Position numbers and translations under genes: made by a program
Source of the DNA: an uncultured Bacteroidota bacterium
GTDB taxonomy: Bacteria > CLD3 > SB21 > JBBIRG01
Assembly (NCBI GenBank): GCA_964609675.1
Contig: CAZSRX010000021.1
Coordinates: 373 to 64,372 of the forward strand
Length of the DNA: 64,000 nt
Direction of reading: 5' to 3'
Shown here: one piece after another, positions 1 to 46,193 of the stretch
Layout: every line of letters starts with the position of its first letter
How positions within the stretch are numbered: position 1 is the first letter of the stretch
Notes under the pieces: model-generated
What the model was told of the DNA's origin: nothing
Seen by the model: only the letters and a program-made list of their open reading frames with translations
Database searches by the model: none

Positions 1-1753
1 TAGCCAGCCATTTTGTGTTCAGTTTAGGCGTCAGCGTAAAACGGAAAAACTTGCATTCCTCCACATTTTTTGTACCAGGCGCGTTTGCAGTAATTTCCAG
101 TTCAAAACAATCTTCCCTTTTAATCGGCATTCCCTCAGGTTCATTAATGGCGCCTGGTCTGAAATATAATTCGATTGTCGTTTTTTCTCCAGGGGCAATA
201 TTGGTGAATGACGGATCATCAGATAATCCGTAGATGTTGTCTCCTTTTGAAATATACATACCTGTCCTGAACAACTCGTCTTTAAACTGATTTCCTGTAG
301 TGTTGTGCCTGAGCCTGAAACAGCCTGATATTTTCTTCGGAAAAATCCTGTTACACCTGTTATGAATATCAAATTCTATCCGGTATTCTGTTTCTTCGTC
401 CCATTCGTAGGCTGGAATTTTTTCAGGAAACCCAACTATTTTCTGCAAATCCTGGTTACTATGGATAATCTCAAGAGAAACGGATGGCTTATATAAAAAG
501 AAAACAACCAGGTAAAGAAACAATAATATTCCTGCAATGATTATGGCCCATATCCACCACGGCATTCCGGGGGGCGGTTCAAAATTCAGTATGGCGTCCC
601 TCTCTGCGGACTGCACGGAGTAATAAAATGTGCCCTTCCAGTATGAATTCGGATTATAAACCATGTCAAATTTAAGAACCAAACCGACGCTCAGGTCCTC
701 TCCCCTGAAAATTGATGAAGAGATGTCGAACGGAGAAATGCTGTACATATTAGGATGGCCCTGAACCGGACGGAAATCAATGTCATAATTTGCTTCTGTT
801 CCCTTGTTCCTTAAATGAAAGGAAATGACCTTTTTCTGAATGTTATCCGGGTTGACGGGTTTCTGCCTGTTCTTTTCGCTGACATACATGCTGAAACTGA
901 AAGGATTCATCTTAAAAACAGACTGCTCCTGGTCCAGGGAAAGACTTTTCCTCTCGATTTCTATCACAGGTACATCCAAAAGGCGCAATACCGATACTTT
1001 AACAAGCATGGGATTAGCCGGATAAATGGGACGTTGTATGACAATTTCATAAACCGGTTCAAGCAGGAAGTTATTGTTGAAAAACTTCACCACTTCATTT
1101 TCGATATAATCAACTTTATTCCTGCTGTTGTCCCGGACAGCCAGTCGGTCGTTAAGCCCGATGCCTCCATCGCCGGAAACAAAGTCGCTGACCTGTATAA
1201 CAATTACCGTATCTGCGGATATTCTCTTATCCGAAAGATATGCGAGTGAAAAAGGGTATACATACCGTATCATCTGAAAATCATATTCCGGAAGTGATTG
1301 AATCCCTTTTAATATATCTGGAATCTCGTCGGCATTTTTTGCTTCCTGAGAGTGACGGAATACCGTATTTGAAAGACTGACAATGAAATCCGGGGAGGAT
1401 TTAGCTTTTGACTCACACAGCTGTATATCCTGTCCATTAATGCCGTGGGTCAGGAAATCCAGGCGGTCGTTCTTTTCTCTGTGATATAACGGCAGGTAAA
1501 GCTTAAAATGATCCATTACGTCCCGGTCTATACGGGCATTCTGGCTGATTTTTAATTCGGAGGATGTAAGCAATTGAATCAGGATGTCGTTAACTTCTCT
1601 ACGCATTTTACGGTCATGAGGCTGAAACTGGTTCCCGGATGAACCGGAAAGGTCATACAGGACAATAATATGCCGGTGAACCTGCTGAATCGGAGTTTGG
1701 GCCTGTAAAGCGCAAACTATGAAAGCGAATATAAGCAAAATGGCTTTCTTCAT
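1..1753 (-). CDS. vWA (von Willebrand factor A) domain protein with N-terminal signal peptide and C-proximal TM helix; start is complete at 1753, 3' end runs off the window
   Basis: Manual translation from the ATG at 1753 gives MKKAILLIFAFIVCALQAQTPIQQVHRHIIVLYDLSGSSGNQF..., i.e. a signal peptide followed by a DxSxS MIDAS motif. A later IQVSDFVSGDGG stretch is vWA-like, and a hydrophobic helix WWIWAIIIAGILLFLYLVVFFLY lies near residues 410-435. The frame is open to position 1. It is absent from the ORF track because there is no stop codon inside the window. Low GC. Confidence 0.6.
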   Translation of the reverse strand, partial: MKKAILLIFAFIVCALQAQTPIQQVHRHIIVLYDLSGSSGNQFQPHDRKMRREVNDILIQLLTSSELKISQNARIDRDVMDHFKLYLPLYHREKNDRLDFLTHGINGQDIQLCESKAKSSPDFIVSLSNTVFRHSQEAKNADEIPDILKGIQSLPEYDFQMIRYVYPFSLAYLSDKRISADTVIVIQVSDFVSGDGGIGLNDRLAVRDNSRNKVDYIENEVVKFFNNNFLLEPVYEIVIQRPIYPANPMLVKVSVLRLLDVPVIEIERKSLSLDQEQSVFKMNPFSFSMYVSEKNRQKPVNPDNIQKKVISFHLRNKGTEANYDIDFRPVQGHPNMYSISPFDISSSIFRGEDLSVGLVLKFDMVYNPNSYWKGTFYYSVQSAERDAILNFEPPPGMPWWIWAIIIAGILLFLYLVVFFLYKPSVSLEIIHSNQDLQKIVGFPEKIPAYEWDEETEYRIEFDIHNRCNRIFPKKISGCFRLRHNTTGNQFKDELFRTGMYISKGDNIYGLSDDPSFTNIAPGEKTTIELYFRPGAINEPEGMPIKREDCFELEITANAPGTKNVEECKFFRFTLTPKLNTKWLA

Positions 1754-1768
1754 TTTAACCTCCGGATT

Positions 1769-2416
1769 TTATCCTACTTTAATTCTTCCGATGGACTGTA
1801 TGGACCATTTATCCCCGTTTTTTCTGCAAAGGGCTGGTTTGATGAGTTGGGTGATTCTCAGGTCATTCTGACTTGACGCTACATCGACTTCAAATGATTT
1901 CTTAAAAACAAATGATGTGTTCTGATCGTAAGGAATGGCCCGTGTCGGCGCCAGCCAGTACAAGTCGTCCCACTGGAACAGAACAAAATAACCGGAAGCA
2001 TCGGCTTCAATCACGGGCTCTGAATCCTGACCGATTTCAGTGTGAAAAGCATCTAATTTAAGCGACACTTTTTTCGCGTCATGGTCAGTAATCCATTTTT
2101 TCAATTTTTCCCGGTCAGAGAGGCTTTGATTGAAAAGCTGAATAACCGAACTGATGTTTTTTTCTTTTTTTCCTTCAGTTTCCGGCAAAATGATTTCCGC
2201 TTTCTGCGCGGGAGATTTCTCATTGTCCGCAAACTTGCGTAATGCGGTTTTTAGTCGGTCTATATCCTCTTCTATCCCGGATAACCGGTCCTGAAAATCG
2301 TTTATTTTGCGGAATAATTGTCTTACTGATTTCCGCATTGAATAAAAAAGCCAGATAAACAAGATAATCATCACCGCATACGCGATAATGGCGATCAGCA
2401 TATTCGTAGTCAGCAT
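1769..2416 (-). CDS. hypothetical membrane-anchored protein: N-terminal TM helix, then a coiled-coil-like charged segment and a C-terminal globular part
   Basis: 215-aa ORF with hydrophobic N-terminus LIAIIAYAVMIILFIWLFY followed by a heptad-like charged region (RLSGIEEDIDRLKTALRKF). 15-nt gap to the downstream gene and 21-nt gap to the upstream gene, same strand. Confidence 0.5.
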   Translation of the reverse strand: MLTTNMLIAIIAYAVMIILFIWLFYSMRKSVRQLFRKINDFQDRLSGIEEDIDRLKTALRKFADNEKSPAQKAEIILPETEGKKEKNISSVIQLFNQSLSDREKLKKWITDHDAKKVSLKLDAFHTEIGQDSEPVIEADASGYFVLFQWDDLYWLAPTRAIPYDQNTSFVFKKSFEVDVASSQNDLRITQLIKPALCRKNGDKWSIQSIGRIKVG

Positions 2417-2437
2417 GGAGGCCCGCTTGTATAGGAT

Positions 2438-5400
2438 TTATGAAAAGGTTTTTCGGTCTTCTTGCATCTTTTTAATTAACGCCCTGGCGCCGATGATAAA
2501 CGGGGACTCCAGCACAATGTCGCTTTCTTTTCCCCTGAAAGCTCCCTGGATGGCGCTAAATACAACATTACGGTCAAATTTCAGAGGGTATATCAGCAAA
2601 TCATCACAGAAATTCAGGAATTCATGTTTGGCCATACCCAATTCGCAAAGTTCATTAAGAAGTTCAAATTTGGATAGGGTAGGATTTATCATATGGGCTT
2701 TATCGAGTAATATATAGTCGTTACGTGCTAGTTCATCCTTGTCCAGCAGGATTCCCGTTTCACCTACAATAACTGCTTTTGAATCTTTTTTAGTTATTTT
2801 AGAGACGGAGAATCCTTCCCTGATTTCATTGCCTATCTCGTTCTTCTGGTCCTTTGTGGATGAGATAGACTTCAGAAATTTGTTGTCTTCATGAATCAAT
2901 AGACCGCGGCATACTTCCTCTTTGGGTTCATCCGAAAGGCATATCGTTATTTGATCGGAACGGAGTTCTTCCCTGTATCCGATAGCGAAAGCCCCCCTGC
3001 CAAGTTTTTCATATACCTTACTGATATCCGGATACAGAAGCTTAAGTAGTTTGGAAGCATTGCCCCCGATGTGAACAGTTACGTTGCTAATTGCCGGATC
3101 CTGTTTGTAAAATAACTGGCCTAAAAAATAAAACATCGAAGCAAAACCCCAGAAGATGACGGAACGGCCGTACTTAACGGGCTCATCCTCCAGATTACCC
3201 GTAAAATAGGAAACAACATTTTCCCCTTTTTGGCTCATAATGTTGTTAATGATTGATCCGTTGTAAATACTGGAATTGGCGAACATATTCTGGATGCGCG
3301 CTGTCTTTACCTTACGCTCGGCCTCATTAGATCCGAAATTGGCGATGCTTACTATTTTTTTCATGAAAACATCAGATTTGCTGAACAAATCTTCAAACAG
3401 CAGAACACCGCCCATTCTGAATGAGAGGTTTTCTTTTATATAATTGCTTCCCTTTTTGCTGTCCCAAATAACCAGGTCTGTCGTTCCGCCCCCGATATCA
3501 ACGGAGACAAAATATTTACCGTTACCGGTTCCTACAATATCATCTTCCCTTTTTTCGGTACAGTACAAGGCGGTTGCGATTCCCTCATCGATGTCTATCT
3601 GTTTATCGTCAATATTTCTGAAATAACTGGTTTTGATATCAACACCGGTCGTTTCATAAACCGATTTTGCTGATTTTTCCCAGGTTGACTTGAAAATCGT
3701 TATCCGGTTTTTTTCAAAAGATAAGGGATAGCTCCATAAAATATGTACCTGCGACTTCTTCAGGTTATATTTAACATGATAAGCTATAAGCAGCATCAAC
3801 TGGGTGATGAACATATCGACCAACGGCATCATTTTCGGATCGGTTGTCCATTTAATCTGTGTGCGGATCTGCGAGGAAAACATTTTAGCGACATCGTCTT
3901 CCATTTTTTCAATATTCTGGAAAGGAATCATGCCATGAATAAACGAAATTCTCTGATTAGCGGCTTCTTTTTTGTAAAGTAAAGCCGTTGTTATCGGAAA
4001 TATGAAAGAATCCGATATGAAATTAGTTGACCGTAATACATTCGCATAAGGCGTGTTGTTGTTAAATACTTCCAGAGGCTTCAGATCATTGATTTCCATC
4101 CGTTTTTTGACCAACTGGCCGTCCAGTAAAAATACATTTGTATTGGAAGTGCCGAAATCGATGCTGACCTCAACAGATGTATTTTCTGTCCTTTCCGCGT
4201 TCGGAGCCTCTATCGCGAATATCCCGAGCGGCTCGCCTTCTCCCTGCAGGGCTTCTTTTTTTCCGTCAGGCAAATCCCTGACCGGAACGGATTGCAGTTC
4301 AATAATGGATGGAAACGATTTCAGACAGTAAACGGACAATTTATCCTCTACTCTGCTGGCAACAACATCAGGTTCATCTTTCATAGAGAAGACCTGAAGC
4401 CGTACATTTGTCTGTATATCTTCCGAATGTGAAAAGAGGCAATAATACCGGTTCCATGCAGGATCATTATATCTCGGCCAGATATCCAGCAGAGGTATAT
4501 TGTCATACTCAATAATATCTTTCGCGTAAAAATCTTTATGCAACGAATAACCGGCACCGCTTTTGTTCAGCTGAATGCGTACTTTAAACCGGTTCCCTGA
4601 ACTGCCCGGATCTTCCAGTTCTTCAATGAAACATTTATCATAATCAATCTCGTATCCCTTTTCTTTCAGGAAACGAAGCCTGACAGGAAAAGTGAATACG
4701 GGTTCCGTCCTGCCGCTTTTCCATTTAAGAGGTTTGATATATTGCGTGTTTATATTTTGGAGCTTGATTAATTTTTCGACAAATACCTGTTTTATGTCTA
4801 TGGGTAATTTGGCTTTTCTGGCGAATGTTGAGTAAAAGGAATTTTCACTTATATTGTTGTAGATAGAAAAAACAGCAGGAGATGCATGAGCAATAATTTT
4901 CTTCTCAATTTCTGCTTTCCATTTTTCTAAAAGCGAACATATTTCATGTCTTTTGTACTCTTTATTATCTGCCGGTTGAAATTGTTTAATTCGGGTTATG
5001 GTTTCATTAATCCAGTTATTTAAGATTGAAAGCATTGTTTCATCGACAGCAAATTTCGGGCATTTTAAAGGATCGGTAAATTTGAATTTTTGTGTTTCTT
5101 CGTTCTTAATGACCCAGGTAAAAGTGTCTGACGGGGCAGGTGCAGCATAGTCAGCCCCCGTAAAAACTAATGTTAAGGGCGAAAAACCGCCAAGAACTCT
5201 TTTCTTTCCTCCGGCAATATGCTTTATTAAATAAAACTCCTCTTCAGGCCAGTATTGATCATTAGGTTTCAGTTTTTTTACTATTCCTGTAAATCCGTCA
5301 TTCGCTAACTTTACTTTTATTATTTCAATTTTTATATCCAATATATCGCTGAAACATAATAATGCCAGAAGTCCTCTCCATTCATCCGTCACAAACTCAT

Positions 5401-5677
5401 GAGCAGGATGCTTAAACCCTTTATTATCCTTCTCAATTGCAAAATACAAAGCCTTATAGAATAGGTATGGACGAGCCCAGACTGTGGGTATTGAGGAAAT
5501 CATATCCGGGGTTTTATCCGTATCATGGATCATGATATCTCTTCCAAGGTTTTCGAGTTGGGAATCTCGGAAACCAACCCACTTACCGGGCTCGGGACTG
5601 TACTGCATACTATTGTTAACACAGACCACTTCCGGTAAAAAGGCTTTAGTCCCTGTCGGTTTTTCATTGTTTGGCAT
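2438..5677 (-). CDS. large (1079 aa) protein with an internal Hsp70/actin-fold (ASKHA) ATPase core
   Basis: Phosphate-1-like motif SIDFGTSNTNVF (compare Hsp70 IDLGTTNS) near residue 505 and phosphate-2-like motif VSVDIGGGTTDLVIWD (compare Hsp70 DLGGGTFD) near residue 735. About 500 aa of N-terminal and 180 aa of C-terminal sequence are unassigned. No signal peptide. Low GC. Confidence 0.6.
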   Translation of the reverse strand: MPNNEKPTGTKAFLPEVVCVNNSMQYSPEPGKWVGFRDSQLENLGRDIMIHDTDKTPDMISSIPTVWARPYLFYKALYFAIEKDNKGFKHPAHEFVTDEWRGLLALLCFSDILDIKIEIIKVKLANDGFTGIVKKLKPNDQYWPEEEFYLIKHIAGGKKRVLGGFSPLTLVFTGADYAAPAPSDTFTWVIKNEETQKFKFTDPLKCPKFAVDETMLSILNNWINETITRIKQFQPADNKEYKRHEICSLLEKWKAEIEKKIIAHASPAVFSIYNNISENSFYSTFARKAKLPIDIKQVFVEKLIKLQNINTQYIKPLKWKSGRTEPVFTFPVRLRFLKEKGYEIDYDKCFIEELEDPGSSGNRFKVRIQLNKSGAGYSLHKDFYAKDIIEYDNIPLLDIWPRYNDPAWNRYYCLFSHSEDIQTNVRLQVFSMKDEPDVVASRVEDKLSVYCLKSFPSIIELQSVPVRDLPDGKKEALQGEGEPLGIFAIEAPNAERTENTSVEVSIDFGTSNTNVFLLDGQLVKKRMEINDLKPLEVFNNNTPYANVLRSTNFISDSFIFPITTALLYKKEAANQRISFIHGMIPFQNIEKMEDDVAKMFSSQIRTQIKWTTDPKMMPLVDMFITQLMLLIAYHVKYNLKKSQVHILWSYPLSFEKNRITIFKSTWEKSAKSVYETTGVDIKTSYFRNIDDKQIDIDEGIATALYCTEKREDDIVGTGNGKYFVSVDIGGGTTDLVIWDSKKGSNYIKENLSFRMGGVLLFEDLFSKSDVFMKKIVSIANFGSNEAERKVKTARIQNMFANSSIYNGSIINNIMSQKGENVVSYFTGNLEDEPVKYGRSVIFWGFASMFYFLGQLFYKQDPAISNVTVHIGGNASKLLKLLYPDISKVYEKLGRGAFAIGYREELRSDQITICLSDEPKEEVCRGLLIHEDNKFLKSISSTKDQKNEIGNEIREGFSVSKITKKDSKAVIVGETGILLDKDELARNDYILLDKAHMINPTLSKFELLNELCELGMAKHEFLNFCDDLLIYPLKFDRNVVFSAIQGAFRGKESDIVLESPFIIGARALIKKMQEDRKTFS

Positions 5678-5696
5678 ATATTTTCTCCGGTATTAA

Positions 5697-7202
5697 CTAA
5701 TTGATGTTATAAACTTTCTGAACAAAATTATAGCTTGCCTGATAGAAAATATTCACTAATTTGGCGGAAGCAGAAGAAAGGCCGCTTTCCACTTTGACTT
5801 TTTTCAGGCATTCAATAAATTTTGTATAATCAGGAGTCAAACCACTCTCATTGAAAAGTACGGATGAAAAATCAGATTCCACATTGCGGCGTGTGTTGAT
5901 AAGTCTGACTACGGGATTGTCAAACCGATGGGTATCCCTCAGCCATTCAAAAAAGGAATAATGTCCTTCCCTCTGGAAAAAATCTCTAACGATAGCCAAA
6001 TATTGTTTTTCCCTGTCAGCTGTTAAATCATCATTTTTCTTGAAGAAATCCCTGATAACTTTCATTTCACCGGGAAATTGAGTAAACTGATTAGTGTTCT
6101 TGTAAAAATAGAGATAGACAGTTCCCATAATAGCTGCTGTCGCCATTTTTATCTTTATTTCGTCCCTTTCAAAGGAGTTTGACGGCATATCGTTCCAGGT
6201 CACCTCATTATTATTTTCACGCCCGCAATAACAATATTCTATTTTGGATTCGCTTCTTTTAGGTAGCGGCTGAGTGTCTTTAAAAAAAGCCATAGCGGAT
6301 AAGGCGGCAATTATTTCAATATAGTGAGGATGATTTGTCTGGCTTTCCCCTCCCACCGCAAATTTTCCAAGTGCCGTATCTTTAATGCTTTTTTCACCAA
6401 GTACATAAATTCTGTTATAAACACCCTTGATAAAAATATCATAATTCATCAGCGCGGCCTTAGTGCTGGAAATAAAATTTTCACTCTTCACAAATAAGCC
6501 GTCAATTTTCTTATCGGGCGTTGAAAAAGTGAAATAAGGCAGCATAATCATACCGCCGATGTAAATATTTTCTCTGTTTTCTGTAATATCAAGGATAAGT
6601 TTGGGTAAATTCGGGAATCCTGCCGCTCCGGTGCCTCCAAAGATGGAACCGCAGATAAATATTCTGATATCTGATGCTTTATTCTCCTTTATCAGTCTCA
6701 TAGTCTGGCCGATAGGGCTCTGTAAAACTTCAGGTTCGGCATTATCATAATCGTTAAAAATTTTAGAGCTTGCCATAACCACAGACCCAATCGCGGGATG
6801 ACCCCGGAAGCCCTGGTTGAGCTTAGTGCATCTCTCATCTTCGGTCAAAAGCAGATTACATAAATCCTGTTCGTCTTCAGACAGCATGTTATATTTTATG
6901 AGATCATGGAGGGATTCATCCCTTTTAACAGGCGACCAGTGCCAGTTGTACTCCTGGTGCTCATCGATTGGACCTTTTATAATAGGAGAGAAAAAAGGGA
7001 CATTCCCATAACCCATACCCCTGCACTTCTGATATAAATTCAGCAGTTTCATGGTCCTGCCAAGATTACCGTTGCCTTTATCCGGGTCAATGAGTAAAAC
7101 GTGCGTCTCATCAGCGCCCAATCCGCAGGCAGATAGATACGCAAAGGCTTCTGTCATTTGAATGCCTCGGCCGCCTATTCCGATCAATATATTGATAGCC
7201 AT
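5697..7202 (-). CDS. tubulin/FtsZ-superfamily GTPase-like protein
   Basis: N-terminal NILIGIGGRGIQ resembles the FtsZ T1 glycine loop (GxGGGGxN). GSIFGGTGAAGFP resembles the tubulin/FtsZ T4 signature GGGTG[ST]G. MNYDIF is a possible T7-like NxDxx element. 501 aa, no signal peptide or TM helix. Low GC. Confidence 0.55.
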   Translation of the reverse strand: MAINILIGIGGRGIQMTEAFAYLSACGLGADETHVLLIDPDKGNGNLGRTMKLLNLYQKCRGMGYGNVPFFSPIIKGPIDEHQEYNWHWSPVKRDESLHDLIKYNMLSEDEQDLCNLLLTEDERCTKLNQGFRGHPAIGSVVMASSKIFNDYDNAEPEVLQSPIGQTMRLIKENKASDIRIFICGSIFGGTGAAGFPNLPKLILDITENRENIYIGGMIMLPYFTFSTPDKKIDGLFVKSENFISSTKAALMNYDIFIKGVYNRIYVLGEKSIKDTALGKFAVGGESQTNHPHYIEIIAALSAMAFFKDTQPLPKRSESKIEYCYCGRENNNEVTWNDMPSNSFERDEIKIKMATAAIMGTVYLYFYKNTNQFTQFPGEMKVIRDFFKKNDDLTADREKQYLAIVRDFFQREGHYSFFEWLRDTHRFDNPVVRLINTRRNVESDFSSVLFNESGLTPDYTKFIECLKKVKVESGLSSASAKLVNIFYQASYNFVQKVYNIN

Positions 7203-7233
7203 AAATAAATGCTCCCTTTATTTATATTAATTT

Positions 7234-7722
7234 CTATCCGATATGTACTTTGCAGGGTATCCTAAGCCAGGGAATTACTTTTGTTGTAAAAGAAGGTCGA
7301 AAGATATGTGACAGTGACCAATAAAGCAAAATATATTCAATTAAGGCTGTATATATCGCATAAAAAGTATTCGGCAGCGTTAATAAAGCCTCAAAACCCA
7401 GGTACTCCTCTATAGCAGGATAAGAATGAGTTGGTAAACTTAAACAACGCAGTAAGACTATAACAGCTATCAATACAATACCAATCAACAAAAAAAGAAA
7501 CCAGCCCTTCAGCGGACGATAAGCCTCCGTTATATCTCTTGGTACTAATTTCTTTTTTACGACATAATACATTACTAGGATAGTGATGATTGCAATAAAA
7601 ATTACTATCAAAAAATTATCAGTCAGAAATTCGGACCATTTCTGGGCGGTATAGTTCATGGGCTGTTTCCCGATACCTATCAACTGCAAGAGTTTATGCA
7701 ACATATCTTTAACTCCTTTCAA
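7234..7722 (-). CDS. small integral membrane protein (2-3 predicted TM helices)
   Basis: 162-aa ORF with hydrophobic segments FLIVIFIAIITILVMYYVV, WFLFLLIGIVLIAVIVLL and AIYTALIEYILLYW. 2-nt gap to the upstream vWA gene. Confidence 0.5.
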   Translation of the reverse strand: MKGVKDMLHKLLQLIGIGKQPMNYTAQKWSEFLTDNFLIVIFIAIITILVMYYVVKKKLVPRDITEAYRPLKGWFLFLLIGIVLIAVIVLLRCLSLPTHSYPAIEEYLGFEALLTLPNTFYAIYTALIEYILLYWSLSHIFRPSFTTKVIPWLRIPCKVHIG

Positions 7723-7724
7723 TA

Positions 7725-8972
7725 TTAATAAATCGCAAGATAAAACCGACCTATGATTTGCGGGTTAATTTCAGCAGACAAAACAAGCAGTTTTTTTGTG
7801 AAATCATATAAATAAGGCGTTTTCGATCCCGGATTTTTCGCGTTATCGGTTGACCATTCTTTTATCCATTCAGGGTATACAACAGTGGGGCTGAATGATG
7901 CCTCACAGTAAAAAGCATACCAGAGTTTTTTCATGATCGGAGCGAGTTGCAGTTTTATCTGTGTTTCAAATTCACCATTTTCATTTATCCTGAATGCTTC
8001 AACCGATTTGATTTTTACAAGCTTGTCTTCTTTTTCTGCCGGTCTGTCAGATTTTATTATTTTTTTTAGAACATTAAGAGATACGTTACAAATCTGGGAA
8101 TCTGTGTTTGTCGTATAAAAAATCTGATAATCTTTAATAAACTTTCCTTTAACCGATACATTCAGATAACCAGTGCTTTGCCCTTCAAATTCAATGATTT
8201 TATAATTCTTAACTCCGGTTTCAGCCGGAACCGTCAATAACGATGAGCTTTCTTTATCGACTTTCAAGACAACTTCCGATTTCTCAACCGCCTCAGAACC
8301 GGAGACAAACAGATATTCGGTTTTCAGGCCGGGAATTGTTCTGGCATCCTCTGTGATGATGTTCACCAGTTTCTGACTATGTGATCGATGGCCGAAAACA
8401 AACATGTAAAATTGCTGGGTTTTTGTCTGAAAACCCAGCAGATAAAAATCATTCTTACTTAGTATCCATTTTGATATTTCCTCAACGACACCCAGTATAT
8501 CTGGTTTAAAATCGATCAAAGGAATGCCGTCGGTTATAATTATATTGATGGAACTGGTATTCAGAGTATCCCCGACAAAGAGGCGCATCACTTTCTTGAT
8601 ATCAGTATCCCCCCTATATTTTACAGGATTTTCTATTTCATCGATCAGGCGGTCATCGGATAAATTCTGTATATCAGCATCAAAACTATGGTATCTTCTT
8701 TGGCATTTGACATAGGATGTTTTAAGAGTCAGCGCGAATTTTGTCATCAAGCTGATATACATTTTATCCCGGGCATAACTGACCATAGAACCTGAACGGT
8801 CAAAATATATGCTTATATCTTCAAGTTCTTTCACAGCCACTGAATTTTTATCAAAAATTTCTTGAACAGTTTTCCATTCCGGAGGATCATCTTTGCATGA
8901 GTTAAAAAAGAAACCGGTCATCATCAAAAATATCACGAAATATTTTATTACTACCTTTTTTGTATTAATCAT
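7725..8972 (-). CDS. vWA domain lipoprotein (first gene of the low-GC operon)
   Basis: Lipoprotein-like N-terminus MINTKKVVIKYFVIFLMMTGFFFNSC (lipobox FNSC). Complete MIDAS triad: DRSGS (DxSxS), GDTDI (T) and IIITDG (D). RBS GGAGAAAGG lies 3 nt upstream. Confidence 0.65.
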   Translation of the reverse strand: MINTKKVVIKYFVIFLMMTGFFFNSCKDDPPEWKTVQEIFDKNSVAVKELEDISIYFDRSGSMVSYARDKMYISLMTKFALTLKTSYVKCQRRYHSFDADIQNLSDDRLIDEIENPVKYRGDTDIKKVMRLFVGDTLNTSSINIIITDGIPLIDFKPDILGVVEEISKWILSKNDFYLLGFQTKTQQFYMFVFGHRSHSQKLVNIITEDARTIPGLKTEYLFVSGSEAVEKSEVVLKVDKESSSLLTVPAETGVKNYKIIEFEGQSTGYLNVSVKGKFIKDYQIFYTTNTDSQICNVSLNVLKKIIKSDRPAEKEDKLVKIKSVEAFRINENGEFETQIKLQLAPIMKKLWYAFYCEASFSPTVVYPEWIKEWSTDNAKNPGSKTPYLYDFTKKLLVLSAEINPQIIGRFYLAIY

Positions 8973-8975
8973 TTA

Positions 8976-8984
8976 CCTTTCTCC
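8976..8984 (-). promoter_or_regulatory. Shine-Dalgarno (GGAGAAAGG) for the vWA lipoprotein gene; the AT-rich 8985-9280 region upstream presumably carries the operon promoter
   Basis: The reverse complement of 8973-8984 reads GGAGAAAGGTAA immediately before the ATG at 8972. Upstream DNA is more than 75% AT with no convincing ORF. Confidence 0.4.
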
Positions 8985-9280
8985 AACAAGATTAAATTTT
9001 CATTAAAAATATTTATTAAAAAAAACCTCTTGATTTTGATATAAAGACATTATTTGATGATTTATATTTAGATATGACTCAATATGCAAAAAAAGAACCC
9101 TTTTTAAATAAAGGCCCCTCTAAAAATTACCTTCTTTTGACAAAAAATAAGCATAAACATTTTAATATTCAAATTATTTTACTCTTCCAACCTCTTTATT
9201 GCGTCTTAATCCGTTCTTTTAGCCGTAAAACGCATATTTTAAGAGAAAAAGCTGATCAAGTATTTCATGACCGGCTCCTA

Positions 9281-9329
9281 TTTAAAAAAAGTTAAAAATC
9301 TCCTGTAGGATACGGTTTATAGGAGATTT
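9281..9329 (-). terminator. rho-independent terminator downstream of sucD
   Basis: Inverted repeat AAATCTCCT...AGGAGATTT at 9296-9329. On the minus strand it is followed by TTAACTTTTTTT (plus-strand A-run 9283-9290), just after the sucD stop at 9353. Confidence 0.4.
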
Positions 9330-9352
9330 ATAATCGGCTTATTTTCTGTGTG

Positions 9353-10333
9353 TTATTTTTTCTTGCTTTTTTTCGTGCTATTTTTTGGGGCGGTCTTTTT
9401 CACGGATTTTTTTGGCGCCGGTTTGTGCGGATACTTTTTTTCGAGTATCTGCTTGACGGTTATGCCGATATCGGCGGGGCTTTTGACTACGTGAATGCCG
9501 GCGGCGGCGAGGGCTTTCATTTTTTCCGCCGCGGTGCCTTTACCACCGCTGATAATCGCGCCGGCGTGGCCCATGCGGCGGCCCGGGGGCGCGGTCTGGC
9601 CGGCGATGAACGCGACGACCGGTTTTTTGAAATGCTTTTTAATCCACGCGGCCGCTTCTTCTTCCGCCGTGCCGCCGATCTCGCCGATCATCACAACCGC
9701 GTCGGTGCCGTCATCTTCGGCAAACAACTGAATGGCGTCAATAAATCGCGTGCCGATTACGGGATCGCCGCCGATACCGATGCAGGTGGACTGCCCGATT
9801 TTCAGCGTCGTCAGCTGATGGACGGCTTCGTACGTCAATGTGCCCGAGCGTGAGATAACGCCCACACGTCCCGGCCGGTGAATGAACGCCGGCATGATGC
9901 CGACTTTGCATTTGCCCGGCGAAATGATCCCCGGACAGTTCGGCCCGATAAGCCGGCAGTTTTTATCTTTTAAGAAATCATACACCTTAACCATGTCCTT
10001 GGTTGGTATCCCCTCGGTGATACAGACAATCAGACTAATGCCGGCTTCAGCGGCCTCTAAAATCGCGTCCGCCCCAAAGGCCGGAGGAACAAAAATCACC
10101 GACGTGTTCGCCCTCGTCGCCTTGATCGCTTCCGCCACCGTGTTAAACACCGGCACGGCATACTTCAGTTTGTCCGTATCATTCCCTTTATACTTCATGC
10201 CGCCCTTGCCGGGTGTAACGCCGCCGACGACATAGTTGCCGTACTGCGTCATCTGGCTGGTGTGGAATGTGCCTTCTTTTCCGGTTATCCCCTGCACAAT
10301 CAGCCGGGTTTTTTTGTCAACAAGAATGCTCAT
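9353..10333 (-). CDS. sucD: succinyl-CoA synthetase (ADP-forming) alpha subunit with an unusual lysine-rich C-terminal tail
   Basis: [28 protein letters not shown]...[26 protein letters not shown]...[14 protein letters not shown] are canonical SucD CoA-binding and ligase motifs. About 35 extra C-terminal residues: [28 protein letters not shown]. Confidence 0.85.
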
Positions 10334-16648: not shown

Positions 16649-17376
16649 AGTCAAGGAAGTAAATTATACAAAAAAAATTGAAATAATCAAATGAAATTAT
16701 TTTTGATATAAAAAACGCTGTCTGTTCGCCGAGCCACATTCGCAGGTTACAACGAAAAGCATACTGTAAAGCATGCGCCGTTTCATCAAATAGTTACTTT
16801 TTTATTAAGACTGACACCATCCTACGCAAGTCCGTGGGGCCTCAAAGAAAACACCATCGATAGATGCCTGAACGTTGTACGGTTTCTTTAAAATATAATC
16901 TCTTCGCGCAGTAAAAAAATTAACGCCTTTGAAATATTGACGGCCCTGCTTGCGTAAAATCAAATGCGATTCATTACGGAGGGCTGGCATGCACTTACAA
17001 CGGTTACGTCTGCTCCAGCGATGAAGCGGATTTCCTGGTGTGTTATGAAAAGAAAACCATCGAACAACTGCTGGCCGCGCTTTCGTAACGCCTTTCCGGT
17101 TTTGCTTCTGAATTAGGTATGGAGAACTTTTCTGATGAACAAGGCGCTATCCGCATTAATAATGCCTTTCCGATTAACCTATGCACATGGATATCCGGCT
17201 ATCGTTATAAATATTTGTTATCGTTTGATAAATATTTGGAAACGGCCCATTATTGTCTGCCGTATCTCCATACGGCTCTGCATGTCCGGCTTTAGAAAAA
17301 TTCCCTTCGCGAGCAGGACGCCTTTGATGGTATCCAACTTAAAGAACTGATTGGGCCCAACCGCCGTTTATTTTAT

Positions 17377-39748: not shown

Positions 39749-42442
39749 TTAGAAGACAAACTCATAGCGCGCGGTAAATACGCGGTTCACCACGTCTTTC
39801 TTGCCGGTAACCGTTCCGCTCGCATCCCGTTTGGGAATTTCCAGGCCCGCGGTCAGACTCAGGTCCAGAAAAACCGTATGCCGGGTGTAGAAATTAAACC
39901 GCTGTCCGAGATTGAAGTTGGTCAGGGTGACGGGATCCACGCCGGTGAGCTTATACGATGTAAGGCCGGCGCCACCGTAAATGCTGAGCTTAAAATCCTT
40001 CTCACGGATTGGCATATATTCCGCCGAAGCATTGTAGGAGGCGGCCGACGGGGAAGACTTAATCAGAGAGACCGCGCTGGCGGTGTCCTGTGACAGGGAA
40101 TAAACCTTGCCGCTGGTCATGCTGAACGCCACGCTGGTGCGAAGCGGAATTTTCCACTCCGTAGTTAAACCCAGAGCGAAGGTGTTGCTGGAAGAATTGC
40201 CTAACGCGTTGTAACGGTAATTCCGGATGGAATCCACGTAAAGGAGATCATCGGTTTTATCTTTCTTGGAACTGGTGTTGAAACTCAACGAGGCGTTGTG
40301 GCGCAAATCAAACAGGAAGAACGAGTAAGAGGACGAGACCGAATAGATGTTGGTTGTGTTCTTTTCCGGACGCGCGTTGCCGTCCACCTGACGGAAAAAT
40401 TTGGACGCGGTGGTATCGGTGGTAAATCCGTTGTCGCGGTTCAGCGTGGTAAAGCCAAACGTCAGCGTCGGCAGGTCATGCGGCAGAAACACGGCAAACT
40501 GGAAGCCAAGGTTGTCCGTCTTTAGGGTATTCACGTTGCGTTTGGCCAGATTATTTTTGGTTGTCATATACGATACGGAAACATACGCGCGGTTATCCCA
40601 GAAGCGGTACCGGTCGGAAATCTCAAAACTTTGAATGTCGCGGACAATCGAACTGCCGAAGGACTGGAAATATCCGCCGTGGTGACGATAACGGGTATTA
40701 AAATTATTATTGAACATATTGACGGCGCCGCCGAAGGTATAGGCAAACAGGTTATTATCTTTCCACCCGTTGATAGGAATTGGATTAAGATTCGTATTGA
40801 CGGTAATAAAATCCTTGAGCATGTTAATTTTATCCTCGTTCATATCGCCAAAACCGTAATCCGAGAAAACGGAAGCGTCAAGATTGCCGCCCGTGATATC
40901 TTCGTTGGTGATGCCGGCGGCCCCGCTGGCGTCAAAGTGCACGCGCCGGTCGAAAAGATCCATATTGAAATCCGCGCCGAACACCACGTTTTCCTTCGGT
41001 TTGATGCCGCTGAAGGCGATGGACTTGGCCTGGTTGTAGCTCAGGGAACCCTGTGCGTCTTTGGCTTTTACGTAACTGAGGCCAAACTGAAATTCTCTGG
41101 GCCCCACGCTCGCGCGCATGCCGAACAGGTCGCGGCGGAACGTACCGGTAAAGGATTTTTTATAAAGCGCGTTGCCGGGATCGTTCAGCGCGCTTAGAAT
41201 CACCGAGTCCGGGTTCGAGTTAATATACGCCCGATAGAGACTGTCCACCTTACTCTGGATTCGTTCATCGCTCTTGGACAATACTTTCCGGTTCACTTCG
41301 CCGCGAACCAGCTGAAAATTGAATATCCCCAGAAACACGCCGGTGCTGACGCCGCGTACGCGCGTGCCGTAAAGCGTGACAGGGCTGAACACGGGATACG
41401 TGTCGCCGTAATCCAGGAGAAGAATATTATCTAAATTGCCGCTGATTAAATACCGGCTCAGCGCCTGGTTTTTGCGGGGATCATCCTGCGAGTCGAAGTC
41501 GAACGTGCCGGCCACCTTGAACCATTTTTTCTCGTAAGAAAGATCCGCTCCGACGCGCCCATAATCGATTTCTTCGCCGAGGTTTTTCTGCGCTTTATAT
41601 TCCGTACGGAAATTGGCCCGGAACCGGCTATCGTCGAACTGCGGTTTGTAGGCCATCTGAGCGCCTCCGGCCGTCACGCCGCTGAAGCCTTTGCCGGAAA
41701 ATATTTCCTCGCCGCCGGTCTGCACAATGGTGAACGACCATTCGGCCAGCTTGTAGATTTCATTGCTCGCGAGGATGTATTCCACGCGCGCGGTATGGGG
41801 ACCTTCGTTGAGGTCTTTGGTGGTGTACGTCACCAGTTCCGCCGTCACGTCGGATTTACGGGTAACGTCGTTACCGTCCAGACGAACGATGATGTTCTTG
41901 ACGTTTACTTCCGTTTCAGAAAACAACGAAACCGCGAGCATGAAATCCGTTCGGGATACGGTTTGGTCGGGCTCGGGCGAGAGAATCACCGCCTCCACTT
42001 CGCTCTGCATCATAACCGGTTTGGCGCCGGTTACGATGATCGGGTTCATCTCGGCGTTGAATTCCGGATAGGTAATCACATCGCCGGCGTCAGTCTCCGC
42101 GGCAATATAATATTCCACGGTCTGGCCGCGTTCCAGACGGACCCGGTCAATGAGGGCGCCGAATTTGCCGTTAACGCGCTCGGTCATTTCCACCTCAATA
42201 AACGCCGGATCGCCCGGATAGCGGTAAAACACCGAGGCGCGGAGGATGCGGGCCGTGAAGCCGATTTCAATATTCAGCGGCTGTCGTTCCGGCCACTGCG
42301 TTACCGGCGTGTGCATGATATAGCCCGTGGCGGGGTTTATTGCCGCCGCCGGCTCCGGATTACCCGCCGTCAGCCACAGCAGGCCGATGAGACCCGCCCA
42401 TAGCGCTCTCTTTGGAAATATGGTACCGCTAAACCAATTCAT
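39749..42442 (-). CDS. large (897 aa) secreted outer-membrane beta-barrel-type protein, hypothetical
   Basis: Signal peptide MNWFSGTIFPKRALWAGLIGLLWLTAGNPEPAAA. Long beta-rich sequence. C-terminal ...ARYEFVF ends in an aromatic residue, as in OM barrels. Confidence 0.5.
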   Translation of the reverse strand: MNWFSGTIFPKRALWAGLIGLLWLTAGNPEPAAAINPATGYIMHTPVTQWPERQPLNIEIGFTARILRASVFYRYPGDPAFIEVEMTERVNGKFGALIDRVRLERGQTVEYYIAAETDAGDVITYPEFNAEMNPIIVTGAKPVMMQSEVEAVILSPEPDQTVSRTDFMLAVSLFSETEVNVKNIIVRLDGNDVTRKSDVTAELVTYTTKDLNEGPHTARVEYILASNEIYKLAEWSFTIVQTGGEEIFSGKGFSGVTAGGAQMAYKPQFDDSRFRANFRTEYKAQKNLGEEIDYGRVGADLSYEKKWFKVAGTFDFDSQDDPRKNQALSRYLISGNLDNILLLDYGDTYPVFSPVTLYGTRVRGVSTGVFLGIFNFQLVRGEVNRKVLSKSDERIQSKVDSLYRAYINSNPDSVILSALNDPGNALYKKSFTGTFRRDLFGMRASVGPREFQFGLSYVKAKDAQGSLSYNQAKSIAFSGIKPKENVVFGADFNMDLFDRRVHFDASGAAGITNEDITGGNLDASVFSDYGFGDMNEDKINMLKDFITVNTNLNPIPINGWKDNNLFAYTFGGAVNMFNNNFNTRYRHHGGYFQSFGSSIVRDIQSFEISDRYRFWDNRAYVSVSYMTTKNNLAKRNVNTLKTDNLGFQFAVFLPHDLPTLTFGFTTLNRDNGFTTDTTASKFFRQVDGNARPEKNTTNIYSVSSSYSFFLFDLRHNASLSFNTSSKKDKTDDLLYVDSIRNYRYNALGNSSSNTFALGLTTEWKIPLRTSVAFSMTSGKVYSLSQDTASAVSLIKSSPSAASYNASAEYMPIREKDFKLSIYGGAGLTSYKLTGVDPVTLTNFNLGQRFNFYTRHTVFLDLSLTAGLEIPKRDASGTVTGKKDVVNRVFTARYEFVF

Positions 42443-42569
42443 AATAACCTCCTTTTTTACATTTTATATCAAACCTTGCTTATCCAATTAATCTTACTCT
42501 GCTTTCAGAAGTAAACCGGACTTTACCTGACCCTAAAGGAAAAAACAATTTTTAACTTCAACGGCTGTT

Positions 42570-42803
42570 TTATGTCAGGTTGTATTTTTTTCGTATTAAT
42601 GCCTGCACTTCGCCTTCTTCGGGAAAGCGGTCCAGTTTCCGCTTTGAAAAAACCAGCGAGCCGTCCACGGTTATTTCAAACACGCCACCGGAAGATTCTT
42701 TCATCTGAACCTCGGCTCCCAAAGCGCTCTTCAGCTCGTCCGCCAGACCGGCGGCCCGGGGGTAATAGTTTCATATAACGCAGTATTCGATGGAAATTTT
42801 CAT
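42570..42803 (-). CDS. SelW/Rdx-family selenoprotein with in-frame UGA (Sec) at the CxxU motif
   Basis: Manual translation gives MKISIEYCVI-U(TGA at 42771-42773)-NYYPRAAGLADELKSALGAEVQMKESSGGVFEITVDGSLVFSKRKLDRFPEEGEVQALIRKKYNLT*. This matches the Rdx/SelW pattern across the whole length (IEYC, RA..LA.EL, GGVFEV.VDG.L.FSK, RFPE). Not in the ORF track because of the internal TGA. Confidence 0.7.
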
Positions 42804-42991
42804 CAGGTGCCTTTCGCTGTATGCAGTTAACGGATATTGAATACAAGTTAATGAAAAATACCTGTTTATTGCAAATGATTTTTCCAAAAAAGTTTACGAC
42901 GCGGTTATTCCAATCTCGCACACCCGTAATCCCGAGTCGCTTTTCAGCCGTTCCGTGTTAACAAGCTTCTGTAATGGCAGTACCGGCGGTA

Positions 42992-44068
42992 TTATTTTTT
43001 GTTTACGGCCGCTTTTCGAAGTTTATCCAGCTTCTCGCGGGCTTTGAGATGGGCGTAATGGGTTTCCGTGAATATATGCCGGCCTGTGCCGTCGGCGACC
43101 ATATATAAATAACGGACATTTGCCGGATACAACGCCGCGAGGATGGAGGCCTTGCCGGGATTGTTTATCGGCCCCGGCGGAAGCCCCTTATACTTGTAAG
43201 TATTGTATGGACTGTCGATTTCAAGGTCTTTATGATATAACCGGCGTGGTGATTCCTGAAGAATGAACTGGATAGTCGGATCGGCCTGGAGCGGCATTTT
43301 CTTTTTAAGCCGGTTATGATACACCGCGGAAACGAGGTAGCGCTCGTCGTCATCGGCCGTTTCGCCCTCGATGATGGAAGCCAGCGTCACCACCTCCCGT
43401 TTGCTCATCCGCAGCTGGCGCATCCGCGCCGTCAGGTTTTCGTCAAAGACGGCGTCTAATTGTTTGAGCATTGTGGTAATGATTTCGCGTTCGGTCGTTC
43501 CCGGGTCAAAATCATAGGTGTTCGGCATCAGGTATCCGCTCAGGTTCCGGTCATCAATACCGAACGAACGGGCGAGCGCCGTATCTTTTAAAACCGCATA
43601 AAAACTGTCGCGGCTGATTGGCAACTGCTTATGGATAATTTCATACACGGCCGCGGTACGTTTGCCTTCCGGAATGGTAATGCGGATGCTCTGCGGTACG
43701 GCGCTGTATAGGATTTTCAGAACCTGATGATTCGGCGCCTGTGTCGGAAGGAGGTATTTTCCCGCTTTTAGCTGTTTTTCCGCTCCCATATATCGGGCGG
43801 CCCAGATGAAGGTCCGTTTATTCTCGATCACGTTACTTTCCTCAAGTATCAACGCGATGTCGCTCAGCGTGGAACCCTTCGGCACGGTAATGAGTATTTT
43901 TCTGTCCACCGTCAGCGCATCCACGTCGACCATGGGCAGATTGTACAAAACGACATTGTAAAAAAGTACGACGGCTAATCCGCCGGTTATAGCTAAAAAC
44001 AGCAAGAATGAGGCGGCAATTTTTAGCCAGACGCCTGGGCCGGACTTCTTCATATTTTCTTCGATCAA
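42992..44068 (-). CDS. mltG: endolytic murein transglycosylase MltG (YceG family)
   Basis: N-terminal TM anchor, then the YceG-like domain (...NPGKASILAALYPANVRYLYMVADGTGRHIFTETHYAH). Confidence 0.75.
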   Translation of the reverse strand: MIEENMKKSGPGVWLKIAASFLLFLAITGGLAVVLFYNVVLYNLPMVDVDALTVDRKILITVPKGSTLSDIALILEESNVIENKRTFIWAARYMGAEKQLKAGKYLLPTQAPNHQVLKILYSAVPQSIRITIPEGKRTAAVYEIIHKQLPISRDSFYAVLKDTALARSFGIDDRNLSGYLMPNTYDFDPGTTEREIITTMLKQLDAVFDENLTARMRQLRMSKREVVTLASIIEGETADDDERYLVSAVYHNRLKKKMPLQADPTIQFILQESPRRLYHKDLEIDSPYNTYKYKGLPPGPINNPGKASILAALYPANVRYLYMVADGTGRHIFTETHYAHLKAREKLDKLRKAAVNKK

Positions 44069-44577
44069 TAAATGCTGCCTCGGTGGTAACGGTTATCCGT
44101 GATAATTAATTCAATGCCTGCGCTATAAAAAACGCGGTCAGTATATTAAATATTTCCCTTGAAATCAACAGCAACCTTCTTTTCAGCATCGCTTCTTAAA
44201 TAGGCTTTTCATTATTCGTCAAAAAACCATAAGACTTGACCGGACATTATACTTAACCGGCGGAGCCTAAATTCAGGCCTAACCGCCTATCCGCCTGACG
44301 AAGCCGGGCACATCGAAAATTTTTTGCACCTATATCAACAAGAATCCCGCGTTCGCCTTTATATGTGCGGTTAATTTAACCAAAAAACGCTGAGGGTGCC
44401 GGAATGGCGTTTCAAAACGTGCCGGAATGATTATTCGGATTCGTGGCACCAGCGCGTAGGGCCTGGCGTGCGAGAAAAACGGCAAATAATTCACTTATTG
44501 GCCATAGCATTTTGCTCTTGATTCTGATTAAAGGTTTCAGATATTTACCATGCCCTATAACCAAACGGAGAAGTATT

Positions 44578-45069
44578 ATGGATACAATCCAGGCAGGCAT
44601 CGTCATGGGAAGCGAAAGCGACTGGGAGATCATGCGGCATGCGGCGACGGTATTGCGCCAGTTCGGTGTGTCGTTTGAAACCAAGGTGGTATCCGCGCAT
44701 CGTACGCCGGATCTGCTTTTTAAGTATGCGGAAACCGCCAAGGAACGCGGGCTGATGTGTATCATTGCGGGAGCGGGCGGCGCGGCGCATCTGCCGGGCA
44801 TGCTGGCTTCCAAGTCAGTGGTACCCGTACTCGGCGTGCCGGTGCCTTCCAAATACCTCAAAGGTATGGACTCGCTGCTGTCCATCGTACAGATGCCGAA
44901 GGGCGTGCCGGTAGCGACCTTTGCGATCGGCGAGTCCGGAGCGATTAACGCCGCGCTGTTTGCCGTAGCGCTTTTGGCGACCCATGATGCCGCTTTATAT
45001 GCCAAACTGCAGAAATTCCGCAAGGAGCAGGAACAGGCCGTTCTTAAAACGCAACTCAAATCCGAATGA
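44578..45069 (+). CDS. purE: N5-carboxyaminoimidazole ribonucleotide mutase
   Basis: [19 protein letters not shown]...[17 protein letters not shown]...VLGVPV. RBS GGAG 8 nt upstream. Start chosen at 44578, not the ORF-track 44443. Confidence 0.85.
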
Positions 45070-46193
45070 TTCTGCCGGGCACATGCATAGGCGTTTTGGG
45101 CGGCGGCCAGCTGGGACGCATGTTTGCGGTCGCGGCCATGACAATGGGCTACGACGTGGCGGTGCTGGATCCCGACCCGTACAGCCCGGCCGGCCGGATC
45201 GCGCGTTATCATCTGCAGAAGCCTTACCGCGATGAAGAGGCCCTGCTGGAACTGAGCCGGCTCTGCCAAGGCGTAACGACCGAGTTTGAAAACGTACCCG
45301 CCGATACGATGGCCTTTCTCGCTTCGCATACGCTTGTCCGGCCGTCGGCTGACGCCGTGGCCGTCGCGCAAGACCGCCGTAAGGAAAAAACGTTTCTTGA
45401 CCGGTTCGGCATCCCTACCAACAAGTTTTATATTGTCAACGCTTCGGAGGATATCATGCCCGGCCTGGACCACACCGGAACGCCGGCCGTACTCAAACGC
45501 GCCCAGCTGGGTTACGACGGCAAGGGCCAGTATATCGTCACAAACGAAAAGGAAGCGCGCGAAGCCTTTCTTGAGATGAACGGCGTGCCGTGCCTTCTCG
45601 AGGAAAAGCTGGATTTCCGTCTTGAAATTTCCGCGCTCATCGTTCGGGGACATGACGGCACGGTAGCGCATTACCCACCGGCCGAAAATATCCACGAAAA
45701 AGGGATTCTCGATATGTCCATTGTACCGGCCCGCATCGGTGCCGACCTGGCAGAAAAGGCCTGCACAATCGGTGAAGCGGTAGCCGCGCACCTGGATTAC
45801 ATCGGCGTTCTGGCGGTGGAAATGTTCGTCATGCCCGACGGACGGATTCTGGTAAATGAAATGGCCCCGCGCCCTCACAACAGCGGCCACTATACGATGG
45901 ACGCCTGCGTCACCAATCAGTTTCAGCAACAAGTGCGCGCGTTGTGCGGCCTTCCTTTAGGCGATGTGACATTGTTGTCCCCCGCCGTTATGGTCAATTT
46001 GCTTGGGGATATCTGGAATCCGGTGCCGCGTTGGGAGGCCATACTGAAATATCCAAATGTTCATTTGCACCTTTACGGTAAAAAAGAACCGCGACCCGGA
46101 AGGAAAATGGGCCATTTTACCTGTGTGGATTCCGATTTGTTCCGTACGATTGAAACGGCCATGGAAATCAAACGATTGTTGCGGGGCCAGTAA
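45066..46193 (+). CDS. purK: N5-carboxyaminoimidazole ribonucleotide synthase
   Basis: [21 protein letters not shown] is the ATP-grasp N-terminus of PurK. ATGA overlap with purE. Confidence 0.85.

Follow-up and report, generated by a model that had tools for sequence, protein, structure and literature searches.

Does an in-frame TGA near the start of a short minus-strand reading frame end translation, or is it read as selenocysteine (Sec)? The question was raised by a locus in a 64-kb stretch of DNA from an uncultured bacterium, which was analyzed at its full length and is called the window below. The reading frame resembles genes for SelW-like proteins of the Rdx family and is interrupted at codon 11. 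We consider it very probable that the TGA codes for Sec in a SelW-like redox protein of 77 residues. The interest of the gene lies mainly in annotation; the family is a very common and long-known one among bacterial selenoproteins, and novelty is limited to its being an uncalled copy in an uncultured organism. In each testable family feature, the locus conforms.

Sequence and annotation of the interrupted reading frame

On the minus strand, the window letters between 42803 and 42570 and their translation give MKISIEYCVI, a TGA, a stretch running from NYYPR to NLT, and a TAA. The 5' end of the frame is ATG AAA ATT TCC ATC GAA TAC TGC GTT ATA TGA AAC TAT TAC, and the translation reads MKISIEYCVI, the TGA, NYYPRAAGLADELKSALGAEVQMKESSGGVFEITVDGSLVFSKRKLDRFPEEGEVQALIRKKYNLT and the terminal stop. 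The features of the gene are as follows.

42570..42803, minus strand: complete gene, very probably for a SelW-like (Rdx family) selenoprotein; 77 codons including Sec11, plus TAA; matches to PF10262, NF041051 and TIGR02174
42810..42815, minus strand: Shine-Dalgarno-like GAAAGG, 6 nt 5' of the ATG, presumed to function as such; 66 of 80 relatives have an SD-like core ahead of the start codon
42801..42803, minus strand: ATG start codon; aligned with ATG in 66 of 80 relatives, and followed by a conserved MKISIEYC N-terminus
42780..42782, minus strand: TGC for Cys8, with which the CxxU redox motif begins; invariant in the family alignment and counterpart of the first CxxC cysteine of 3DEX and 2FA8
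42771..42773, minus strand: in-frame TGA, codon 11, very probably read as Sec; TGA in 80 of 80 loci, alignment with PDB homologues, four assemblies
42570..42704, minus strand: 44-aa fragment from Met34, the sole public gene call for this gene; 100% identical record in NCBI, JGI and Logan
42570-42572, minus strand: TAA stop, from the window sequence

The first-pass annotation had proposed this minus-strand translation, and it was reproduced letter for letter, with the ATG, the TGA as codon 11 and the TAA. It had also predicted that automated annotation would truncate or miss the gene, which was borne out by the public record, a fragment that begins at Met34. A plain list of open reading frames contained just the 50-aa piece 3' of the TGA, and on all four contigs that carry the gene it had been called as a 44-aa Rdx gene. 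Its close relatives are on record either in truncated form or with a Trp in place of Sec, an illustration of how routinely gene callers miss or mistranslate the small selenoproteins of metagenomes.

The same 234 nt, TGA included, were present in four independent assemblies (one from JGI and three from Logan/SRA), and this identity excludes a sequencing error. Disruption of the frame in independent reads, named by the first-pass annotation as a sign of a pseudogene, was seen in none of the four. An erroneous TGA in place of TGC or TGT, whether from sequencing or from assembly, draws on the general possibility of such errors alone; it is refuted by the four identical copies together with the TGA found in 80 of 80 relatives (see below), and the chance that it is correct is negligible.

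Membership in the Rdx/SelW family

For profile scoring of the 77-aa product the TGA was replaced by Cys. The product matched the Pfam Rdx profile PF10262 over its entire length (positions 1-74 of 74; 74.9 bits against a gathering threshold of 22.6; E = 6e-21), well beyond any chance level, and it scored above the cut-offs of two NCBIfam models, NF041051, named 'SelT/SelW/SelH family (seleno)protein' (96.8 bits; cut-off 88), and TIGR02174 (61.7 bits; cut-off 34.2). All invariant residues of the family alignment were kept in the window gene. Matches in the PDB were to human C17orf37 and to six bacterial SelW-like proteins of the Cys type. 3DEX_A (E = 1.7e-10) and 2FA8_A (3.1e-10) ranked highest, both spanning residues 2-73, and the window protein is predicted from this homology to have a thioredoxin-like alpha/beta fold. 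The CTQC motif of 3DEX and 2FA8 aligned to C8 and the TGA codon, the classical Sec/Cys pair, and in all six bacterial PDB homologues the second Cys of CxxC fell on the TGA. The redox motif C8-V-I-U11 is thereby placed right after the first beta-strand at the N-terminus. Two claims of the first-pass annotation, that the frame is a full-length member of the Rdx/SelW family and that its TGA occupies the site of the second Cys or Sec of CxxC/CxxU, were thus upheld, the former by the full-profile match and the two NCBIfam scores, among them the TIGR02174 comparison that it had proposed, and the latter by the second Cys of 3DEX and 2FA8.

Bacterial SelW-like selenoproteins have been described by Zhang, Fomenko and Gladyshev (2005) and by Zhang et al. 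(2006, 2008). The CxxU family has been known in bacteria since 2005 and is the most abundant one in marine selenoproteome surveys; in the Global Ocean Sampling data, 427 Sec-containing and 56 Cys-containing SelW-like sequences are given in PMC2398784. According to PMC1794560, SelW-like selenoproteins occur in Desulfotalea, Geobacter, Alkaliphilus, Desulfotomaculum and Symbiobacterium, and Sec is maybe the ancestral form. A table in a 2026 review carries the entry 'SELENOW-like, PF10262, CxxU' (PMC13188914). A redox role of the bacterial proteins has been proposed from their motif.

Compared with these bacterial proteins (PF10262, formerly PF05169; TIGR02174; NF041051), in which Sec forms prevail and Cys forms are few, the window protein has the same size of about 75 aa and the same N-terminal beta-strand followed by CxxU, and its gene has the same arrangement of a TGA-encoded Sec with a hairpin inside the reading frame directly downstream. 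No substantive difference was apparent, and none of the relatives found exceeded 69% identity to the window copy. This copy differs from the relatives in its source, an uncultured organism of a methanogenic bioreactor metagenome, and in its gene neighborhood, which is not shared. The locus-tag prefix of the JGI sample is cited for such a metagenome, that of Nobu et al. (2015), in bioRxiv 10.1101/322537. The solved Cys-containing proteins 3DEX (SAV_2001), 2FA8 (Atu0228), 2OKA, 2OBK, 2OJL and 2P0G are homologous to residues 2-73 (E from 1.7e-10 to 6.5e-5) and carry the IEYCxxC motif at the same place, but they have CxxC instead of CxxU, are longer by ∼25-30 residues owing to N- and C-terminal extensions, and are encoded by genes that have neither the TGA nor a SECIS element. 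The eukaryotic SELENOW/Rdx proteins (SelT, SelH, SelV and Rdx12/C17orf37) belong to the same Pfam family and share the CxxU/CxxC motif, with 2LJK matching at E = 3.6e-7; as set out in PMC13188914, selenoprotein genes of eukaryotes have a SECIS element with a kink-turn core in the 3'-UTR together with SBP2/eEFSec, in place of a SelB-bound hairpin within the reading frame.

Conservation of the TGA codon among relatives

One genome per species was scanned for full-length relatives, which resulted in 80 loci with 49-69% identity. They came from Desulfobulbales/Desulfocapsaceae, Acidobacteriota/Thermoanaerobaculia, Planctomycetota, Gemmatimonadales, KSB1, Cloacimonetes, Chitinivibrionales, Myxococcota, Poribacteria and others. 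The aligned codon was TGA in all 80. As tblastn penalizes a stop aligned with Cys, the ranking of the relatives is, if anything, biased against loci that contain TGA. In the collection of protein sequences, the seven full-length homologues retrieved all had W at the Sec site (CVVW, CSKW, etc.), and the remaining homologues retrieved were C-terminal fragments of 44-58 aa. The W evidently stems from gene callers that read TGA by translation table 4 on short contigs.

The N-terminal MKISIEYC was present in 46 loci, which spelled it in 36 different ways at the DNA level. Codon positions 1, 2 and 3 had variabilities of 0.19, 0.14 and 0.46 before the TGA and of 0.24, 0.18 and 0.45 after it; the patterns on both flanks are those of coding sequence in a single frame. 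This selection on either side of a codon that is TGA in every relative backs the proposal of the first-pass annotation that read-through restores the conserved domain.

These data also bear on a reading of the TGA as Trp, Gly or Cys, either by translation table 4 or 25 or by near-cognate read-through, which would turn the motif into CxxW, CxxG or CxxC. The public full-length homologues translated with W are in keeping with it, but the relatives belong to phyla with the standard code, the TGA occurs solely at the redox Cys site and is followed by a conserved hairpin, and a Trp at residue 11 would break the motif that defines the family, CxxC/CxxU. Within the window, TGA terminated 13 of 50 long non-overlapping reading frames (one of the 13 being an antisense shadow frame), among them ilvE, which covers positions 9-357 of 358 of its NCBIfam profile, and an M1 peptidase gene; the long frames of the window were intact under table 11. 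As TGA serves as a normal stop codon in the rest of the window, an alternative code is excluded and the TGA of the SelW-like gene is a case of local recoding. We regard a standard amino acid at this site as very improbable.

A covarying hairpin downstream of the TGA

The 60 nt from the TGA onward were aligned without gaps for the window and its 80 relatives (81 sequences), and the alignment columns are numbered accordingly. A hairpin of the bacterial SECIS type was located as follows.

42740..42754, minus strand: putative bacterial SECIS core hairpin, stem CCGCC(G)/(U)GGCGG, within codons 17-22 (A-A-G-L-A-D); columns 20-25/29-34; covariation
42745..42749, minus strand: apical loop GGUCU; G42748 is invariant in 81 of 81 sequences, and G42749 and U42745 are able to close as G·U
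42737..42758, minus strand: possible extension of the lower SECIS stem, columns C16-G37 and G17-C36; weakly supported

Within the stem, pair 21-33 was CG in 51 sequences, UA in 20, GC in 4, UG in 3 and AU in 1; pair 22-32 was GC in 35, UG in 24, UA in 18 and CG in 2; and pair 25-29 was G·U in 44 and A-U in 35. Further down, pair 16-37 was CG in 66 of the 81 sequences, and pair 17-36 was GC in 31, GU in 23 and unpaired in 24. The stem cells were paired in 92.7% of cases, compared with at most 50.6% when the 3' arm was slid by 1-3 columns. None of 500 shuffles reached the covariation score, and RNAalifold recovered the same helix independently. Columns 21 and 33 are both wobble positions of codons, so their covariation does not arise from selection on the protein; changes in columns 22 and 32 alter residues jointly (A…A, S…G, S…E), from which it follows that the protein sequence is constrained by the RNA structure. 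The loop was GGUCU in 34 sequences, AGUCU in 14 and AGUUU in 10, with other variants in the remainder, and the hairpin of the window, GCCGCC-GGUCU-GGCGG, is the commonest variant of the family.

The bSECIS model (Zhang and Gladyshev, 2005), as summarized in Figure 2 of PMC13188914, has a loop of 3-9 nt, an upper stem of 4-16 bp, a G in loop position 1 or 2 (typically N1-G-[G|U]-N-N2 with N1 and N2 paired), a spacing of 16-37 nt between UGA and loop, and a free energy of at most -7.5 kcal/mol. The window hairpin is within these limits in size, with a loop of 5 nt (3 nt if G25·U29 is paired) and a stem of 5-6 bp, and in spacing, which is 21 nt (columns 4-24) and ungapped in 81 of 81 sequences. 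The loop pattern fits 76 of the 81 sequences, that of the window included. In the conserved register, the window hairpin has a free energy of -9.2 kcal/mol, again within the limit; 62 of the 81 sequences are at or below -7.5 kcal/mol, and the median is -8.4.

Folding of the window sequence by itself gave a different picture. For the 64 nt 3' of the TGA, the single-sequence fold was not better than shuffles (z = 0.60), and the minimum-energy fold was in a shifted register with the loop GCC (-13.0 kcal/mol); the hairpin was brought out by the comparison of sequences alone. The Rfam SECIS models gave no match at gathering thresholds, nor at E values up to 10 on 42500-42900, a result that bears on those curated models and not on the bSECIS consensus. 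Rfam gave two other matches. PYLIS_3 at 42532-42616 (minus strand) reached 19 bits against a gathering threshold of 38 (E = 0.087) on A/U-rich sequence of the gene end and spacer and was judged to be a chance match; the second match was to a snoRNA.

In comparison with the SECIS element of E. coli fdhF, both hairpins lie within the reading frame 3' of the UGA and have a small apical loop with a G followed by a U, and we take the loop sequence GGUC(U) to be literally shared by the two. The conserved stem of the window hairpin (5-6 bp) is shorter than that of fdhF, and no conserved equivalent of the bulged U17 of fdhF was evident in it. The essential loop bases of fdhF are G23 and U24 (PMC8659212), and their counterparts in the window, G26 and U27, are one codon farther from the UGA.

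The first-pass annotation had favored Sec insertion as the reading of the TGA and had suggested a SECIS search immediately downstream. The covarying hairpin within the four bSECIS limits agrees with that reading, as do the TGA in 80 of 80 relatives and the alignment with a Sec/Cys site. Translation would arrive at the UGA at codon 11 of the SelW-like frame, where SelB carrying Sec-tRNA(Sec) would bind the hairpin within the coding sequence, and the UGA would be decoded as Sec instead of causing termination. The product would be a 77-residue cytoplasmic thioredoxin-fold protein with the motif Cys8-Val-Ile-Sec11, which presumably cycles between selenol/thiol and selenenylsulfide states in a thiol-redox reaction.

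Search for selenocysteine machinery and for a second selenoprotein

Genes for selA, selB and selD were found neither in the 64-kb window nor in further contig sequence of the same organism (∼8 kb and ∼13 kb), as judged by NCBIfam scans of ten reading frames of compatible size and by precomputed Pfam calls for the remaining contig. With ARAGORN, a tRNA-Sec gene was predicted neither in the window and the extra contigs nor in any of the 80 related loci; the tRNA genes of the window were two tRNA-Leu only. A screen of the 64-kb window for TGA-interrupted frames with a redox motif revealed no credible second selenoprotein gene. Five other TGA-interrupted candidates in the window turned out to be plain stop read-through into spacers or a tRNA gene.

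The lack of Sec machinery in the window and extra contigs would fit a relic gene in an organism that no longer decodes Sec, where translation would stop at codon 11 and yield nothing functional, or at most a C-terminal fragment of 44-50 aa. SelW-like selenoproteins have been lost from sister lineages (PMC1794560, Table 4), and the gene callers saw only the 44-aa fragment. The gene itself shows no decay, however: every invariant residue is present, its NF041051 score lies above the equivalog cut-off, and its SECIS-type hairpin is the commonest variant of the family. Moreover, 64 kb are only part of a genome, so sel genes missing there weigh little. A relic is improbable on this evidence. That selA, selB, selC and selD are present in the organism, as the first-pass annotation had proposed, is a strong inference, because the invariant residues, the equivalog score and the common hairpin variant do not look like decay. 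With Sec as the preferred reading of the TGA, the gene would mark its lineage as a Sec user once that lineage is pinned down.

Gene neighborhood

The SelW-like gene is preceded by a YceG/MltG gene (42992-44068) and followed, 127 nt downstream and on the same strand, by a gene for an 897-aa protein (39749-42442, minus strand). The 897-aa protein had no Pfam match; its hydrophobic N-terminus and its C-terminal ...RYEFVF suggest that it may be secreted or an outer-membrane beta-barrel. The 897-aa gene has a strong ribosome-binding site, AAGGAGG. As no terminator was predicted between the SelW-like and the 897-aa genes, the two may be co-transcribed. That the gene is the first sign of Sec decoding in this bacterium, and perhaps co-transcribed with the 897-aa protein, is a tentative and rather unlikely proposal; if true, co-transcription would be the first link between a SelW-like redox protein and a particular partner.

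For 12 neighboring window proteins, orthologues were absent from the surroundings of the SelW-like gene in all 80 related loci. A recurrent set of neighbors was present in 23-37 of the 80 (Desulfobulbales and related lineages) and absent beside the window gene. It consists of a divergent gene for an HD-domain phosphohydrolase upstream, a convergent gene for a DtxR-type iron-dependent repressor immediately downstream and, further on, genes for a RecN/SMC-like ATPase, a ThiI-domain protein and Dus. These neighbors look like housekeeping genes. Since there is no conserved operon, the neighborhood gives no hint of a partner or substrate; it is not conserved across phyla, and the locus thus gives no new handle on the role of bacterial SelW-like proteins.

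Other observations in the window

A 506-aa reading frame at 44412-45932 (minus strand) was rejected as a G+C-rich shadow frame antisense to purE-purK (44578-46193, plus strand), both of which are supported by JGI calls and Pfam.

The first part of the window, 1-9600, has a G+C content of 39-42%, compared with ∼50% in the remainder, and contains five or six minus-strand genes (415, 162, 501, 1079 and 215 aa) that have no Pfam matches on record. In the JGI sample this region lies on a separate contig of 17,180 bp, where it is followed by genes for a 1141-aa HSP70-domain protein, for a 700-aa protein and for one with a Fib_succ_major domain; the last of these hints at a bacterium of the FCB group. 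Breaks near 9.2-9.6 kb of the window occur in three assemblies. The boundary could be the edge of a genomic island, a repeat or a mis-join in the window record.

At 16649-17376, ∼730 nt beside the tRNA-Leu(CAG) gene contain no reading frame of at least 100 aa, and the one gene called by JGI within them encodes 56 aa; no other part of the window is devoid of a long reading frame over a greater length.
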